DNA from: a virus
Lineage: Duplodnaviria > Caudoviricetes
IMG/VR virus record: IMGVR_UViG_3300021255_000136
Span: 17,434-81,433 of that record
DNA length: 64,000 nt
Direction: 5' to 3' (one strand)
The notes under the pieces: generated by a model
What the model was told of the DNA's origin: nothing
Database searches by the model: none
What the model saw: only the letters and a program-made list of their open reading frames with translations
Translations under genes and position numbers: made by a program
Shown: positions 3,443-63,644 of the stretch, in pieces
How positions within the stretch are numbered: position 1 is the stretch's first letter
Layout: the number at the start of each line of letters is the position of its first letter

Positions 3443-3776
3443 GATAGAAGAGTTTCTGACCGTCGAGGAATACAAACCGATGGTCGAGAAACTGGAAGAG
3501 CAAGTAAGGAACAGAGAAGTAAAGATAGCTGCTCTCGAGTCAGAGCTGAAGGCCCAGCAGGACAAAGAAAAAGAGCACAGGCAAGCGGATCTCAACAACA
3601 CCTATGCGTGGATGAGCGAGGCCATGAGACTGAGGCGGCTGTCGGAAATGCTAGGTGAGGACTTAATGGAATATAAGAAACGAGCGGAGAAAGCGGAACG
3701 CGGATTGCGTAATATGCAGAAGTGGATCGAGATCTCCGGCGAGAAAGGAGCGCCCCGTGGACCAGAATATCTCTGA
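3414..3776 (+). CDS. coiled-coil hypothetical protein
   Basis: 120-aa E/K/R-rich heptad ORF filling the operon gap. Confidence 0.6.
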   Translation: MPKTRSTQDEIEEFLTVEEYKPMVEKLEEQVRNREVKIAALESELKAQQDKEKEHRQADLNNTYAWMSEAMRLRRLSEMLGEDLMEYKKRAEKAERGLRNMQKWIEISGEKGAPRGPEYL

Positions 3777-3951
3777 AGAAGTATGGATCGGCCCATACGA
3801 TGACGCTCCGGATTGCGTATATAACGATTGTGTTGGTTGTTATTACCATCATTGTGAGGATTGTGGATGGAACCCCTTCGTGTCCCTTGCCCGCGTCACA
3901 GTAAAATACGGTGAGAAAGCTGCGGACCATTTAACGATGAACGCAGGCTAG
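3757..3951 (+). CDS. small Cys-rich hypothetical protein
   Basis: GGAG RBS; C..C....C..CGWNP pattern. Confidence 0.55.
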   Translation: MDQNISEEVWIGPYDDAPDCVYNDCVGCYYHHCEDCGWNPFVSLARVTVKYGEKAADHLTMNAG

Positions 3952-3961
3952 GGAGGTATTC

Positions 3962-5920
3962 GTGAATATTACAATAACAGAATTCACGAGCAGGAGAAAT
4001 CCTAACGGTGTAGTAAAGAACACCACCTGGTCTGACCTGGTCAAGCGGCTGAAGACTCCGGTCTATACTGAGGAGTCAATCGATGAATACTGGGCGATGT
4101 CAAACGAGGATCGCACAGACGCAAAGGATGTAGGCGGATATGTAGCCGGTGAGTTTGAGGGCGGCAAGCGTGAGAAGAAACTGCTGAAGAGCAGATACAT
4201 TCTTACCATCGACGCGGACGATGCAACCGATCATGACGTTGAAGACTTCCAGTTCATGAACGAGCATGTGATGTTCTTCTGTCACTCCACCCATACCAGC
4301 ACCGAAAAGAATCCTAGACTCAGGTGGCTGTTCCCTCTGGCTCGTCCGGTAACAGCAGAAGAGTATAGAGATCTGGTAGGAATCGTGGCCTCCTGGGTTG
4401 GTTCGAGTACCATAGACGAAACGACAGACCAGCCTGAGCGTCTGATGTTCTGGCCATCCGTTTCATGGGATGCGCACTACGCATACTGGGAGGGCGGAGA
4501 TACTCCCATCGATCCGGACGAGATACTGGTCGAGGTAGATCCCGGAGAAATGCAGCCTGTCGAGTACTCCCCCACAACATCATCGGATACTACAATAGTT
4601 TTTGATGATGACGGGAAGATCCCCCAGGGTATGAGGAATAGAACAGTGTTCCGGTACGCATCCAAACTCCGCGAGGCCGGGCTTGATGCAGATATCATTC
4701 TTGAGTCGATCCGTCTGTTCAATGAGAAGTATTGCGATCCTCCCCTTCCAGACACCGAGCTGAAGACTATCACCGGCTCTACGAATAGATTCCCCAAAGG
4801 CGAGAAGATCACAGCGGATATGTACACCGCTGATGATGACTTCAATGATATGGGCGAGTCTAAGAAGAGGCAGCTCGCTCCTCCTCTGGAGAACGGCAAC
4901 CAACTTCTCAGCAGGTACATCCAGCCAGCAGTTTTCCTCGTGGAGGACATGGTGACTACGGGACTGGGAATGGTGGTAGCTCCTCCGAAGTTTGGCAAGT
5001 CGTGGTTCGCACTTGACCTGGCTATCTCTATAGCAACAGGCCGAGAGTTCTTCGGGAAGAAAACAGTTAAGTCCGGGGTTCTGTACTATGCCTTGGAAGA
5101 TAACGACCGTCGAATTCAGAATCGTCTGGACGAGGTATCCGGAAAGGATAAGGAGCTTGCGTGGTTCTATCATAAAGAAGAGGCCCCGACTATGGACGAA
5201 GGACTATTCGATGAGATCGATGCCTACCTCAAGATGTATCCGGAGATTAAGTTCATCGTGATCGATACCCTGCAGAAGGTCAGGCCACCTGCCAAAAGAT
5301 CTGAGGGCGCATACTCCAACGACTACAATGACGCAGGTAAGATTCAGAAGTACGCGCTGAAGAGAGACATCTCGATTCTGCTTGTCCATCACACGAGAAA
5401 GATCATAGATCCAAACGATCTGATCGGAAACATCAGCGGCACGAATGGTCTGTCCGGTGCTATCGACTATGCGTTTGGTATGTCCAAGAAGAAGTGGGAT
5501 GATGACGAGGCAAAGCTTGAACTCACAGGCCGAGACATCAATAAGCAGACGTACATGATGACCTTCAACCAGATTTCTTACCGCTGGGAGAACCTCGGAT
5601 CAGAGAAGCAGGTAAAAGAGTCCGAGGCCGATAGGATGTATAACGAAGATCCTGTTGTGAAAACTATCAAGTATTACCTTGATCTCGTTGAAGAAGAGAC
5701 AGATGAAGACCCGGTAGTCTGGAATGCTACAGCCAAGGAACTATATGACAACTGCTTACAGCTGTACCATACAGCCGGAGAAGGCACAGACTCGAAGCAG
5801 AAGCTTGGTATTAGAGTAAACGCTTTAGCCGAAACTCTCCAGCGTAGAGATGATATCGTTGTGTCGAAGGGGCATGACCGGAGCGGTAACTATTACATCT
5901 TTACCAGAGACCGTTTATAA
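3962..5920 (+). CDS. primase-helicase (VirE-type N-terminal primase domain, PriCT-1, AAA_25/RepA-like helicase)
   Basis: GGAGG RBS and GTG start; KDVGGYVAG...TIDADD and FWPS primase motifs; GMRN...FNEKYCDPPLP.EL (PriCT); Walker A APPKFGKS; Walker B IVIDTLQ; LLVHHTRK. Confidence 0.85.
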   Translation: MNITITEFTSRRNPNGVVKNTTWSDLVKRLKTPVYTEESIDEYWAMSNEDRTDAKDVGGYVAGEFEGGKREKKLLKSRYILTIDADDATDHDVEDFQFMNEHVMFFCHSTHTSTEKNPRLRWLFPLARPVTAEEYRDLVGIVASWVGSSTIDETTDQPERLMFWPSVSWDAHYAYWEGGDTPIDPDEILVEVDPGEMQPVEYSPTTSSDTTIVFDDDGKIPQGMRNRTVFRYASKLREAGLDADIILESIRLFNEKYCDPPLPDTELKTITGSTNRFPKGEKITADMYTADDDFNDMGESKKRQLAPPLENGNQLLSRYIQPAVFLVEDMVTTGLGMVVAPPKFGKSWFALDLAISIATGREFFGKKTVKSGVLYYALEDNDRRIQNRLDEVSGKDKELAWFYHKEEAPTMDEGLFDEIDAYLKMYPEIKFIVIDTLQKVRPPAKRSEGAYSNDYNDAGKIQKYALKRDISILLVHHTRKIIDPNDLIGNISGTNGLSGAIDYAFGMSKKKWDDDEAKLELTGRDINKQTYMMTFNQISYRWENLGSEKQVKESEADRMYNEDPVVKTIKYYLDLVEEETDEDPVVWNATAKELYDNCLQLYHTAGEGTDSKQKLGIRVNALAETLQRRDDIVVSKGHDRSGNYYIFTRDRL

Positions 5921-6021: not shown

Positions 6022-7125
6022 ATGGCCAATAAAAAATTAGTTAAAGTATCTCTTCAGCTCCCGGACAAGAGCAGAAAGTACTTTTACGGAAAGACAAAGA
6101 AGGAGGCAGAGCAGAAAAGAGAAGAAGCAAAGCGGAAGCTTTTTATGGGATTCGATGTGGGCAACACCACCACATTCGAGGAACTGGCTGACCTCTGGCT
6201 CACAGAGTACAAGGCCCAGCGCAAACTCCATATACGGACAAAGGAATCCACTGAGGACATAGTCAAGCGGTACATCCTGCCAGAGCTTGGAAGCAAAAGG
6301 GTAAAGGATATCAAGCCAGCAAATATCGACCGCATGCTGCTGAACATCTCTCACCTGTCCAAGAGTACACAGGAGAAGGTTCTGACGTATACGAACAAGA
6401 TCTTCAACAAAGCTGTAGAGAACGATATCATTCCTCACTCCCCCGCGTTCAATAAGAAGCCTACAGCGGATAAGCCAGAGAAGGTAAGGCCGCTCACCGA
6501 CGCACAGTGCGAGGCTTTACTGAAAGCAACAAAGGGAACCAGGGTGTACCCGTTCATCGTTGTCTGTCTGTTCAGTGGTCTGCGCAAAGGCGAGGCAGCC
6601 GGACTGATGTGGAAGGATCTGGACTTCGAGAACCGGATGATCCATGTTGAGAGATCTATCGTATGGCCGAAGTCCAATCGCCAGGGCGAGATCAATACTC
6701 TAATGAAATCTGATGCAGCCCATAGAAAGATCCCGATGGCACCGGAGATCTACCAGGTTCTGAAGCCACTGAAGTCAGGAAGCAAATCCCTGTACGTGTT
6801 CCCCTGCAAGACCGGCGGCTTCATGACAGCGGAATCCATCCGTAGTATGTGGAGCTTCGTAACGAACCGGACAGTCGGTGGGCCGAGTACAGGATATCAT
6901 CTCAAGCCAACACTGGACTTCCATGTTACACCGCATGTCCTGCGCCACACCTGCTGCACGAGATGGATCGCCAATGGGATGCAGCCTAAAGAAGCACAGT
7001 ACCTCATGGGCCATGCCTCGCCGGATATCACGATGGCTATTTATGCAGAATATATGGCTGAACAGGAATTGCCTAAGACCGCAGAAAAAATTAATTCCGA
7101 GAATCTCCGGCTGGCTCTGGGATAA
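6022..7125 (+). CDS. int: tyrosine recombinase (phage integrase)
   Basis: N-terminal arm-binding-like segment; SGLRKGE (catalytic R), KS, HVLRHT, MGHASPDITMAIY (catalytic Y). Confidence 0.95.
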   Translation: MANKKLVKVSLQLPDKSRKYFYGKTKKEAEQKREEAKRKLFMGFDVGNTTTFEELADLWLTEYKAQRKLHIRTKESTEDIVKRYILPELGSKRVKDIKPANIDRMLLNISHLSKSTQEKVLTYTNKIFNKAVENDIIPHSPAFNKKPTADKPEKVRPLTDAQCEALLKATKGTRVYPFIVVCLFSGLRKGEAAGLMWKDLDFENRMIHVERSIVWPKSNRQGEINTLMKSDAAHRKIPMAPEIYQVLKPLKSGSKSLYVFPCKTGGFMTAESIRSMWSFVTNRTVGGPSTGYHLKPTLDFHVTPHVLRHTCCTRWIANGMQPKEAQYLMGHASPDITMAIYAEYMAEQELPKTAEKINSENLRLALG

Positions 7126-17300: not shown

Positions 17301-20300
17301 TCAGTACGTTGCCAATAGGTCCGGATGTACTCTTGAACCGGTTCAGTGCCATAGCGAAGGTGTTCAGCTCATGGTAGGTATCACGCTGGGCCTGCATCGT
17401 CGCGTACTGTCTGGCCTTGTTTAGCATCTCTCTGCCTTCTCTGGTGTTGAAGATCGTCGGTTCTTCAGAGTTCTCTTCGCCTACTTCCATAGCCTTCAGG
17501 AGATCTTCTTCAGATACGCCCTGAGCCTGTAGTGCTTCTGCCAGTGCTCTGACATAGTAGCGCTTCTGGAATGCGAAGTCAGATTTCTCCAGGAACTCGC
17601 CATTCTTCTTCGACAGTTTGTCAAGTGGAGCCCAGCCGAAGATGTCGCGCTTGTTCAGGATATCACTGATGTCGTTGAACTTGTTGCCAGTACGCTTGCC
17701 TGCTACGACGTCTTGCATAGTTGCGTAGTCGCGCTGTGCAAACCGGACATAGGTGTTGTCGGACTCTTTGCCAAACAAGCCTACCCAACCGGTAAGTTCA
17801 GCACCGGGTACGTGCATCTTGTACTCGGGGTCAATAATGCCGGGGATCTGTTCAAGACGTCGCAGGATAAGATCTTTCATGAACACTGCGGGCATGAAAG
17901 CTGCATTACCAACGAAGTTCCTTATGTGGGTTCTCGGATTGCCTAGCATCGCCAGATATCTCCAAGCGTTCCACTTATCCATGATCGTTGCGGGGATCTG
18001 GTCAGCAATATCTTTCTTGATCAGTTCCATGATATCGCTGATCTCCTGACGGCTTGTTGCGGCCATCAGTCTCTCTGCCAGTTCCTGGTTCAGAGTGATA
18101 CGCTGCATCTTGTTCTTCGGGTTTTCTATCCTCTTTGCATACGTTGCATTCAGGTGGTTGATAACACCGTTGATGTAGTAGAGCTGGCCTTGCGGTGTCG
18201 CCTTCTTAATAATCGACATCGCCTGTACAGCCTGACCTAAGTTGGTACCCAGGATAGACAGATCGGCTGCTACCTTGACTGCCTTATCATAGGTGTTAGG
18301 ATCAGAGCTGAATTCCTGGATGAGGAGTTCTGCCAGTGCGATCCACTCAGCTCTCGGCAGTTCACCACTCTCGACCATTGCGCTGAATGTGTTCATTGCC
18401 TGATCGAAGTTGCCGTTGAAGCGATTTGAAAGAATGCTACGCGCCAGTCGGATAGACCTTGCGTTGGACTGAGGGGTATATCCCAGCAGCTCATTTGTCA
18501 TACCTTCATACAGCATGCGCTCGGTGAGGTGTTCGTTCTCGACGTTTGCCGCTACGGTCTGCATGTGCTTCCGCACAGCGGTGTTGTCAGCGGACTTCTT
18601 CGGGAGATGTACATCATCCTTCTTGTCGCCTCTACCTTTCGGGAGCTTGCCGTACTTCTTTATAGCGGAGTCGATTGCTTTGTGGAGTTGTTCCTTCTTC
18701 TCCTCGGTCAGGTCGTCGGCGTAGTCAACTACACCCTTCAACCGTTCAAAGCTGTCGGCCAGAGCCTGTGGTCCGTTCCGGTTGACATACTCGTTAACGA
18801 TGTCCTCCAGCTTGAACGGGTCGTTCTGGTTGGCGTTGAGCAGGTAGTTGTACTCGAAGGAGTTGATCGGGAACGTGTCCAGTGTGGTGATCTGCTGGCC
18901 GCTAGCGTTGCGGAAAGTGAAGGTCTGGTCTCCTGTTGCGTTCTCCCTCATCGGGTTCTCGAAGCCAACGGAGAATTGTTTGCTTACACCTTCCTGCGCT
19001 TCACTCTGCGGTTGACTCTGTTCATACAGTTCTCCATTGTCTCCTGTGCGTCGAGATGTTCCTTCTTGATCCTGCGCAGGAACTTCTTCCGTTCCTCGTC
19101 GTAAGCCAGCATCCTGTTCACGGAGACGATATCCAGTATCGACATCCCGATTTGCAGGAGGTATTGTATAAGGTTGCGTTGTGGTTCGGTCAGTACTGTT
19201 GGCATTGTTCATCGCCTCCAAATAATTGATGTATTGTGCTTCGGGGGAATCTCCTCCTACGTTCTCCATGACCACCGTCTCACCAGAGTCGAGCTGGTAG
19301 TATGCGGTATCGTCGGAGTAGTACAGGTTCGGAGAAAGTTCGGACTGAGTAAGGTCTGTTGGGTTGGTGTTGGAGATTTCAACTTCATCGCCGAATGCGT
19401 CGTAGGCAGCATTGGGGTCGATGGAGAGGGAATAGCTACCAGCAACCCCCCAGGAATTTACGGTATTGAAAATTGCGTCTCTGGAGTACTTCGGCGCATT
19501 TCTCCGCCTACGTTCGGCTCCCCATTCCAATCTGCTTTGAACATCTCTGGCCTCGATTTCTCCGGCTGTATTCCTATAGAGATCGTAGTCGGAGTCATTT
19601 TTGTGAGACCGGTTCCTGCTCTGGGAAAGATCGTAGTTACTCAAGAAGTCTGCTACTTCGCCGAGACCATACTCGCCTATCGCCCACAGGAGCTCTTTCT
19701 GATAGTCCTCGCGCTTTTTCTCATAGTATAGCTGGCCATTCTTCTGGAAATCCTGCAGCGTCAGATGAAGCATTTCGTTGCGGGTTTCTGCCATAGCATA
19801 GAGCCGATTCAAGCCATCTGCTGGGATGTACAGTTTCATGGCTTCTAAGGCTTTCTTTGCACGGTCCTTCGGTGTGTACGGCACTCGTTTCCCGTTTACG
19901 TCGATCTGGTCGTCCCAGGCTTCGAGATTTGAACCGCTCGCAAATCCTTCCATATACTGGATAGCGTGCTGTATTTCATGCATCAATGTACTGCGTACGT
20001 CTCTCTCGGCCTCTGATAAATACCCGACGAGGTCATCAAGAGCAATTGTGATCGTGAAGCTGGAGGGATCAAATTCGCCGCGTACATTACTCGGCATTTC
20101 TGTGAAAACAACGGTATAGTTTTTAAGGTCAGGATAGTTAGCAAATAACATCCCGGCGTTTCTTAAAACTTCTGGGAGCTTATACTCGGACCTGTAGTTT
20201 TCTGCGTTACCAAGAGAACTTTGTATAGCCGCGTTCCATTCCTGATCAAGTACAGCAGGACGTATGGTAAAGTCCTTATCATAGATCTCCCACTTCCATT

Positions 20301-49888: not shown

Positions 49889-52302
49889 TCAGCCGATGTT
49901 CAGGATGACATCAGCAAATGCGACCGGCTTGTCGGCAGAATCGACTTCGACGATACGTGCCACAGTGTGACCAGCGGTCGGAGTGATCTCCACGTAGTTG
50001 ATCGGATTGTTGGAAGCATCCTTCATCTCGGTCCAGTTTGCAGTGGTGATTGCAGTACCATAGGTAATTGCAGTCAGACCAGATGCAGCAGCAGCGGTCA
50101 TGTAGTACCACTTATTGCCGGTAGCGTTGAGCTGGCCATTAACAATAATGGTGGTCTTACCAACGGCAGTTGCAGCAGTCATAGCGTCCATAGTCTTGAA
50201 CACAGACTGACCACCGTGGTAGTAAATTGCATGCCGCTTTTCGTTAAGAACGAAAACATCATAAATGGTTCTTCCTTCGCATTTAATTTTTTGTTACCGT
50301 AGAGGCTTTTTATCCTCTACTTCTCATGGTTTCCCATGAGGTCAGCGTACATTTTCACCCTCGATATACGGTCGGGTGTTGAGGTCTCTTGGGGGAATTA
50401 TATTTGTTCATCCCCTACGCGTTACGGTGTCTTCCAGCCTTTCGCAATCTGGGAGATTACCTCGGTATTAGCTTGCCACTATGGTTTAGCTTTCACCGAT
50501 TTACCTCAATTCGTTAGGTAGATTACGCTACCCTCTGGCCGAAGGTGTTGACCAGCCAACCGGAGATTCCGGGAGGATCGTCATGAATGCGATACAATTG
50601 TGTTATCCTACAGGCTTTTTATCCTGTAGTTCTTATGGTTTCCCATAAGTTCAGCGTACATCATCTTCCTCTATAATAGTAGGAAGCCGGATACTCTTGC
50701 CAGGATTATCCATCTACTTTTGTAGTTCCACCTGGTACGCGTTACGGTGTCATAGGTGATTTAATTCCTATGCTTACCTCGGTATTAGCTTGCTGCTTTT
50801 TCTTCAACGTATTGCCAATGATAGCCATACATGGTTGGGCGTTTGCCTCGACACACATTCCCTATATTGGAAGGAAAGCCGCCGCAAGCATCTGCCGCAG
50901 CTTTCAATGTCGGGAAGATCTCTCCAGTCTCAACACAGAGAACGCTTCTCGCCGATCCATGATTCGCCCCGCTATTCGCCGCGCTTATCTTCTTTTTAGA
51001 CTCCTCTGTATGATGGTGGCCATAAAAAGTAGCATTCTCTCCCGTATGTGTATGATTAGCAGGATCGGAATAAAATTCTTTCCAGTGCTCACTCATCTTT
51101 TTCCGGGCTTCCTCACTCTGGTGTTTCCCATACATCGGATGGTCTTTCCCGGAATAGTGCTTACCACCTGTACAACCCTCTCCGCCATCGGTCATGTTGT
51201 ATCCATACTTCTTTCCATAGCGAACAACGTTAGTCTTGTATTGGGCGATCAATTCCATCTCTTTCTGGCTTGCTTCTTCGAGTGTAAGGCCTTCATAGAG
51301 GATCTCATGTTCAAAAGAATCCCAACCGTATTTTATAATAGCATTTGCAAAAGCCGGATGATTAAAAACGCCGTAGGTCTTTTTTAAATAACGGCATCCG
51401 TTATGACCCCAGCGTCTCTCAGGCTTTTTATCTGTTATTCCAAAATACTTCTTCCCATTAATTTTGTTAGTATGGCAATATACTGTGTACAATTATCTTT
51501 CTCCTGTTAATTATAAAGCAGTTTAGCCTTCACCGATTTTACCCGGTTTATTTATCGCGGATCACGCCGCGAGAGGACAATCGTGTCTATCCTCGAGCTG
51601 TTTCGGGCCGACAGCAGCATCGGAGTGTGCAATAAGGAATGCAGCACCAGCCGGGAGTCTGCTGGACGGAACCTTAACAATCTTGCATCCATCGATCTCA
51701 CCGAGGATGCCTTTGATTACCATATCCTGGGACTTGTCAGAATATTTGACAAATGCCGGATCCTGCATCATGAAATTCGCGAATTTGTAGGTGCAGAAAG
51801 CCACACGACCTGCTTCAGGTACGTTGTGTTCGCCAAGATACTCCTGACCTGTGAGGAATGCCTCGTAGGCATTTGCCTTAGTAATCGCGGTAGTTGCAAA
51901 GCCACCAGCTGCCTGTGCAGCTTCTGCAAGAACTTTGAATGCATAAGTATCAAATTCAGGAACAACAACTTCCTTCAGCTGACGGGCCAATGCCTGACCT
52001 GCGTCACTAACCATTTCACTTTGCAGTTTGTCACCCTTATCGATGATGAACGTGAAGGAACGGTCCTTCGTCACCGTAAGAGTTTGTACATTTCTTGTCA
52101 AATCATCCGGAGTGCCATAGCGGGCCATGCCACCACGGACGTAGTCATGCATAACAGCAATAGGAATGCTGTAGACTTTGACGGTTTTTTCACCAGTAAA
52201 ATCATATTTTGCGCCAAGCGCGAGCTGGGCTTGGCTGTCGAATGTCCATCTTTCATCTACGATAGGACTATATTTGGTTGCTAAATTAATACCACCGGGC
52301 AT
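49889..52302 (-). CDS. major capsid protein, spliced from three exons (51589-52302, 50551-50594, 49889-50279), 382 aa
   Basis: Joining gives a continuous frame ...GPKQLED|YRIHDDPPGISGWLV|EGRTIYDVFVLNEKRHAIYYHG..., the usual C-terminal HK97-fold capsid pattern; 714+44+391=1149 nt. Confidence 0.9.
50280..50550 (-). ncRNA. group I intron 2 (271 nt, no ORF)
   Basis: P1 CUGGU/GCCAG with U.G at the splice site; P10 CCUUCG pairs perfectly with the 3' exon CGAAGG; P3 UUGAGGU/ACCUCAA; P7 GCGUA/UACGC; terminal G. Confidence 0.9.
50595..51588 (-). mobile_element. group I intron 1 (994 nt) carrying a homing endonuclease
   Basis: The 5' exon ends in U and the intron ends in G. P1 GAGGAU/GUCCUC with a U.G wobble at the splice site; P4 UCGGU/ACCGA; P7 GCGUA/UACGC; terminal P9 hairpins. 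Confidence 0.9.
50785..51492 (-). CDS. intron-encoded GIY-YIG homing endonuclease with NUMOD3/NUMOD1 DNA-binding tail
   Basis: AGGAG RBS and TTG start; TVY.HTNKINGKKYFGIT (GIY-YIG); YGYNMTDGGEG; H.EE.KKKIS repeats; C-terminal HTH VLCVETGEIFPTL..AA...YGYHW. Confidence 0.9.
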   Translation of the reverse strand: MYTVYCHTNKINGKKYFGITDKKPERRWGHNGCRYLKKTYGVFNHPAFANAIIKYGWDSFEHEILYEGLTLEEASQKEMELIAQYKTNVVRYGKKYGYNMTDGGEGCTGGKHYSGKDHPMYGKHQSEEARKKMSEHWKEFYSDPANHTHTGENATFYGHHHTEESKKKISAANSGANHGSARSVLCVETGEIFPTLKAAADACGGFPSNIGNVCRGKRPTMYGYHWQYVEEKAAS

Positions 52303-63538: not shown

Positions 63539-63644
63539 ACCACACTCGACCATGCGAGTATAAACAGGAGTCAGGCATGGTGCGTGGGCAGGACTCGACA
63601 TCCTGTCCGGTCTCAAAAGAAATTAATTAATGGAGGATATAGAA

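Follow-up and report, generated by a model that had tools for sequence, protein, structure and literature searches.

A pair of group I introns from a single phage intron family, separated by a 44-nt exon, is predicted to interrupt the major capsid gene of an 81-kb phage

The virus record IMGVR_UViG_3300021255_000136 comprises 81,433 bp, has direct terminal repeats and is rated complete. The window analysed here is a stretch of 64,000 nucleotides of this record (positions 17,434 to 81,433), and all coordinates given below are those of the window. The capsid gene lies on the minus strand, from 52302 to 49889, with genes for the terminase large subunit and the portal protein and a scaffold-like gene upstream of it, and tail fibre genes, an endolysin-like gene and an ORF of 7763 aa downstream. 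The latter, a single ORF spanning positions 14320-37611 of the minus strand, follows the tail and lysis genes. An integrase-family protein is encoded on the plus strand at positions 6022-7125 (phrog_1, E 2e-65), and the phage, whose genome carries direct terminal repeats, may be temperate. The early region contains, towards the right end of the window, an Rfam match to the self-cleaving Pistol ribozyme (positions 63544-63615, plus strand); it covers the full model length, with a score of 51.5 bits (gathering score 34.5).

Gene calling reports two ORFs with capsid similarity at this locus, one corresponding to the N-terminal part of the protein (246 aa) and the other to the C-terminal part (104-130 aa). 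Cutting out two inserts, 51588..50595 (994 nt) and 50550..50280 (271 nt), places three exons of 714, 44 and 391 nt in one frame, and the joined sequence of 1149 nt encodes an uninterrupted product of 382 aa. The restoration is exact: the original prediction had proposed the same excisions and the same 382-aa frame, and its coordinates and arithmetic were reproduced without deviation on recomputation. Exon 1 (52302..51589, minus strand) encodes aa 1-238 and matches the phrog_422 major head protein (E 3.9e-47). Exon 2, a micro-exon (50594..50551, minus strand), encodes YRIHDDPPGISGWL and contributes the GU of a valine codon; it is unbroken with its neighbours in intron-less alleles and in 102 homologues. 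Exon 3 (50279..49889, minus strand, including the stop codon) encodes aa 254-382 and matches the C-terminal third of full-length homologues. Skipping the 44 nt of exon 2 shifts the frame and leads to a stop after 6 codons, while a frame that runs into either retained insert stops 8-9 codons later (RHDCPLAA* and NTFGQRVA*), so the early termination that had been foreseen for each of these cases is present in the sequence, within 6-9 codons.

A search with exon 1 yielded 2434 relatives, the best matches being mostly uninterrupted proteins of 373-386 aa, and several homologues bear the name 'N4-gp56 family major capsid protein'. The exon 1 product shares 83% identity with P0003 and P0004, two uninterrupted capsid proteins of the N4-gp56 family, and the joined 382-aa product aligns without gaps with uninterrupted capsid proteins of this family (374-376 aa). 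The peptide spanning the junctions, KQLED|YRIHDDPPGISGWLV|EGRTIYD, is the same and contiguous in the uninterrupted proteins P0003, P0004 and P0005, which also share the junction peptide KQLEDYRIHDDPPGISGWLVEGRTIYD. Alignment with intron-less capsid homologues, which the original prediction had named as a check of the splice model, agrees with it: the junction segment is contiguous in 102 of 102 aligned full-length homologues, 79 of which contain the motif PPGI[SN]GWL[VC]EGR. Full-length homology and the position in the head gene block identify the predicted gene product as a major capsid protein of the HK97 fold and the N4-gp56 family. About 90 residues at its C-terminus (49889-50170, minus strand) resemble the S-layer SbsC C-terminal domain (PF18316), with a score of 24.9 bits that stays below the cut-off of 26.6; the resemblance suggests that the capsid protein carries a fused Ig-like surface domain.

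Both inserts are preceded by U (T in DNA) and end in G. Insert 1, the putative group I intron 1 (51588..50595, minus strand), is located after codon 238 (GAU|UAU) and carries an endonuclease ORF; insert 2, the putative intron 2 (50550..50280, minus strand), lies inside codon 253 (GU|C) and has no ORF. Shifting both borders of insert 2 by one base gives an identical joined sequence, and the borders given here were chosen by the U/G rule. In each intron, bases 6-16 constitute an internal guide. The guide of intron 1 (51573..51583, minus strand), as read from the sequence, pairs as GUCCUC with GAGGAU of the upstream exon (P1, with a U.G pair at the splice site) and as CGAU with AUCG of exon 2 (P10). 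That of intron 2 (50535..50545, minus strand), read in the same way, pairs as GCCAG with exon CUGGU (P1, again with U.G) and as CCUUCG with CGAAGG of exon 3 (P10). The splice-site U is thus opposite G in P1 of both introns, and in both, the nucleotides directly 5' of the guide's P1 strand are able to form pairs with the beginning of the downstream exon. Across four insertion sites, relatives included, the guide tracks the exon and the U.G pair is retained throughout; the exon/guide pairs are AGCU/GGCU at aa 94, GAGGAU/GUCCUC at aa 238, CGGU/GCCG at aa 248 and CUGGU/GCCAG at aa 253.

Both introns contain a group I core from P3 to P9, with the P3/P7 pseudoknot and a P7.1 hairpin. In intron 2, P7 (GCGUA 50420..50416 with UACGC 50349..50345, minus strand) encloses P7.1, P3' and P8 and makes up the pseudoknot together with P3 (50508..50503 with 50385..50380, minus strand); the minimum free energy of this intron has a z-score of -3.7. 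If the ORF of intron 1 is disregarded, the whole cores of the two introns align with 68.5% identity, and the differences between them in P2, P3, P6, P7.1, P8, P9 and P9.1 are compensatory. Covariation was assessed with intron 2 and ten ORF-less relatives (11 sequences), for a topology of 51 pairs in nine helices that included P3, P4, P6, P7 as a pseudoknot, P7.1, P8, P9 and P9.1. In this alignment, 97.5% of cells are paired, compared with 35-43% when the partners are slid, and 30 of the 51 pairs show compensatory changes; none of 500 shuffles attained these values. The covarying helices are P3, P6, P7.1, P8, P9 and P9.1; P7.1 (columns 161-165/194-198) has compensatory changes in all five of its pairs, and some relatives possess a second hairpin within its loop. 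P4 and P7 are invariant among the 11 sequences, and this set therefore speaks neither for nor against them; P7 does covary in the comparison with the terL intron of Lactobacillus delbrueckii phage JCL1032, where GCGUA/UACGC is replaced by GCAUA/UAUGC. Of the structural elements listed in the original prediction, the U and G borders, P1 with its wobble pair and P10 can be read in the sequence. Covariation backs P3 and P9 within the 11 relatives and P7 against JCL1032, whereas P4, although present in the core, is invariant in that set and gives no such signal. The presence of a P7.1 hairpin between P7 and P3' points to subgroup IA (IA1/IA2-like), and the features of the family point to an IA-like intron with the P7.1 hairpin and a P9.1 extension. 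More than half of the viral group I introns in one survey were of subtype IA2 (PMC11835236).

A search against Rfam 15 found no group I match in the whole window at the gathering threshold, in a 2.6-kb segment at E<=10 or in the 286-nt intron alone at E<=10. The published, homologous JCL1032 intron, used as a positive control, was missed by the same search as well, so the negative outcome says little about the introns of the capsid gene; it reflects the models, which have low power for this intron family, and not the sequence.

The ORF of intron 1 encodes a protein of 235 aa (51492..50785, minus strand) and lies in the P5 loop, with a TTG start after AGGAGA; its final codons and stop overlap P5' and P4'. 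Domain searches revealed a GIY-YIG catalytic domain at the N-terminus (PF01541, 24.0 bits, cut-off 22.6) and NUMOD3 in three stretches (PF07460, 48 bits). The protein is related to the phrog_314 homing endonuclease (E 9e-44), and its C-terminus matches the DNA-binding domain of I-TevI (1I3J, E 0.0058). By domain layout it is an I-TevI-like GIY-YIG/NUMOD3 endonuclease with predicted activity.

Most of the 71 related capsid loci found in viral contigs are uninterrupted. Orthologues of intron 1 occupy the same site in L003, L020 and L026 (96.5-97.4% identity over the compared 3' half), and the site is empty in L017 and L044. An orthologue of intron 2 is present at the same site in L017 and L097 (92% identity over the compared 3' half), and this site is empty in L003, L041-L043 and L044. 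L044, whose capsid protein is 93% identical, has neither intron. L041-L043 (94-95% identity over exon 1) contain intron 1 alone, a layout also found in the contig of P0002, and L097 and L017 (90-98% identity) contain intron 2 without intron 1, plus another member of the family at codon 94. In L091, the intron 2 site is occupied by an HNH-bearing intron of the same family. The empty alleles are evident at nucleotide level, the intron 1 site of L017 reading GAGGAC|TACCGC and the intron 2 site of L003 reading GGCTCGTG|GAAGG, and both differ from the occupied alleles at exactly the positions paired in P1. The family's introns at codon 94 (L097 3566-4500 and 4999-5264, L096 4783-5048) include ORF-bearing and ORF-less forms, and L097 represents a different double-intron allele, with codons 94 and 253 occupied. 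L106, a relative with 57-67% identity, contains an insertion of 856 nt at capsid codon 116 (3645-4500) that did not match the HMM of this intron family and may be another kind of intron or insertion.

Among the best 120 of the 2434 protein homologues, 17 are truncated within this region of 20 codons, at four or more distinct positions. No other part of the protein is as conserved as the intron region: the ten top-scoring 18-aa windows all begin at aa 239-250. Insertion in the most conserved stretch, together with truncations at several sites, is the pattern expected of homing elements, and the existence of relatives with intron 1 only, intron 2 only or neither indicates that the introns move independently. 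The overall picture is that of independent mobile elements apparently aimed at conserved sequence. No second instance of the pair at codons 238 and 253 was found in viral or metagenome contigs by an exact-pattern search from the P9.1 loop of intron 1 to the guide of intron 2, which diverged copies could escape.

The 3' halves of introns 1 and 2 (230-nt segments including some flanking exon) are 66.5% identical, and in this comparison each intron is nearer to introns at other loci (69.5% and 77%), which indicates that they arrived separately. A recent local duplication was considered and rejected on these 3'-half values and on the 68.5% identity of the cores. A 16-nt motif from the core, used as a query, led to 39 viral contigs in which the element is present, either ORF-bearing or ORF-less; the 81-kb genome itself has two copies of the intron family and no others. 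The core blocks that the original prediction had noticed in both introns are indeed shared, but they do not vary anywhere in the family, even in introns that lie in unrelated genes of contigs of jumbo-phage size. Given this invariance and the nearer relatives elsewhere, the description of the two introns as paralogous holds in the sense of membership in the same family, as the core identity indicates, but does not extend to local duplication or to their being nearest relatives, which the 3' halves contradict. ORF-less members with identical core blocks occur in contigs of 203-236 kb (L006, L027, L031 and L037), and the family is widespread, being found in phages of Streptococcus, Staphylococcus and Clostridium and in crAss-like phages.

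A close known counterpart is found in phage JCL1032, for which two reports (PMC6669764, PMC2504315), citing Riipinen and Alatossava 2004, mention group I introns in terL and one other late gene; in PMC6669764, these introns are described as proven self-splicing. The JCL1032 terL gene is annotated as a joined CDS, and the core of its intron is 68% identical to that of the capsid gene introns across P3-P9.1 (E 6e-10). By sequence, this is the same RNA family, with compensatory changes in P3 and P7, and in both cases a late structural or packaging gene is interrupted in a phage of Gram-positive bacteria; in JCL1032, however, the host gene encodes terminase rather than capsid protein, and the match is to a single intron in terL, which has no ORF of >=60 aa. 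The capsid genes of crAss-like phages of the Delta and Zeta groups occur in up to five pieces (Yutin et al. 2021, PMC7886860). As in the phage studied here, group I introns, some with endonuclease genes, split the major capsid gene and gene callers report fragments, but the crAss-like phages have up to four interruptions and belong to another lineage with another capsid family, while here two introns lie 44 nt apart in a genome using the standard genetic code. Tape-measure genes of Bacillus cereus-group prophages contain the introns TMP-IVS1 and TMP-IVS2 (Tourasse and Kolsto 2008, PMC2504315), likewise a case of one structural gene interrupted by two related introns of type IA, whose cores are conserved while their P1 guides have diverged in accordance with the different sites. 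Those introns share 80% identity overall, and 90-92% within the core, unlike the capsid gene introns, which are 68.5% identical in their cores and are not each other's nearest relatives, and the host gene is tape measure instead of capsid.

Capsid-gene introns are also present in mycobacteriophage LittleE, where splicing was demonstrated by RT-PCR, and lactococcal phage Tuc2009 (PMC3706429). The interrupted major capsid gene and the U/G borders are common to these phages and the one described here, and the LittleE intron has an endonuclease ORF too; one intron per gene is described for them, and the LittleE endonuclease belongs to another class. In jumbo gut phages, a mean of 18.5 group I introns per genome was reported, with metatranscriptome reads backing splicing in 37 of 76 tested (PMC12880540). 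Intron 1 resembles the td intron of phage T4 with its endonuclease I-TevI, since both combine an IA-type intron with a GIY-YIG endonuclease having a linker and a C-terminal DNA-binding domain, and both have an in-frame stop soon after the 5' splice site. The td gene is metabolic, while the gene studied here is structural, and the ORF of the T4 intron sits in the P6 loop, whereas that of intron 1 is in P5. Multi-intron structural genes, capsid genes included, are thus already published (PMC7886860, PMC2504315, PMC3706429), and the points that distinguish the present case are small: the 44-nt internal exon in this phage lineage and the pairing of an endonuclease-bearing intron with an endonuclease-free one.

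We infer with high confidence that two mobile group I introns of one phage family interrupt this capsid gene and that each would be self-splicing, with endonuclease activity and homing predicted in the same way. The central proposal of the original prediction, two related group I introns flanking a 44-nt exon and both to be removed for capsid synthesis, is upheld by the frame, which excision restores exactly, by alleles with empty sites and by the covarying core. After transcription, each intron would fold by itself, its guide pairing with the last bases of the upstream exon in P1 with the U.G wobble. An external guanosine would then attack after the splice-site U, and the freed exon end would attack after the terminal G of the intron while the guide holds the downstream exon through P10. 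Both reactions would be needed to produce the 382-aa capsid frame. The in-frame stop, which in each intron comes after 8-9 codons and lies in the P2 loop, probably halts ribosomes short of the ribozyme core. In mixed infections, the GIY-YIG enzyme of intron 1 presumably cuts intron-less capsid alleles, and repair of the break would copy the intron in. Intron 2 may be a relic of an endonuclease-bearing intron, or it may be carried with flanking DNA during break repair. It is conceivable, but rather unlikely, that intron 2 spreads by riding on intron 1, break repair converting across the 44 nt so that both home as one cassette; if so, this would be a 'collaborative homing' in cis between two introns of one family. 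Intron 2 also stands alone in relatives.

The splicing of intron 2 might instead depend on intron 1 or on a host factor, or the pair might sometimes splice as one unit and skip the micro-exon. Intron 2 has no ORF, and there is a precedent for skipping: exon skipping between adjacent group I introns is said to have been described by Landthaler and Shub in 1999 for orf142 of phage Twort. The core of intron 2, however, is complete and comes with a guide, a P10 and a terminal G of its own, and the 92% identical orthologue at the same site in L017 and L097 occurs without intron 1, while skipping would result in a frameshift and a truncated product; we consider such dependence or skipping improbable. 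Occasional joining of exon 1 to exon 3, by analogy with Twort, is a possibility, and it would yield a truncated capsid fragment.

The notion that double splicing works as a throttle or timer by which the phage regulates its capsid output, kept by selection for the benefit of the phage, draws on the obligatory nature of both splicing events and on the large amounts in which capsid protein is needed; nothing else speaks for it. It appears very improbable in view of the phages with 93-98% identical capsids that have only intron 1, only intron 2 or neither, since such relatives show that the pair is dispensable and not conserved and argue against a required role for the introns; moreover, exact-pattern scans of other viral and metagenome records did not find the pair, and the homing endonuclease gene in one of the introns marks a selfish element. 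Hardly credible, finally, is a decaying pseudogene or an assembly chimera with the capsid protein made from another gene, even though gene callers report only fragments of 246 and 104 aa. The exons are in perfect frame, 83-95% identical to intact homologues and free of internal damage, the inserts combine group I borders with a fold that covaries, and independent contigs contain these introns at identical sites. The gene is also in the expected place, between scaffold-like and tail genes and downstream of the terminase and portal genes. Two mobile, self-splicing introns remain the preferred reading.

The capsid intron pair opens no new mechanism, and the practical point concerns the annotation of intron-split capsid genes: owing to introns that escape the Rfam models, the capsid is reported as a truncated protein of 246-262 aa, here and in about one in seven of the closest relatives. 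The relatives document clearly how introns have been gained and lost in nature, with empty, singly occupied and doubly occupied alleles at several sites inside the 20 most conserved capsid codons. This allele series could serve studies of intron homing and of the adaptation of guides to new sites.
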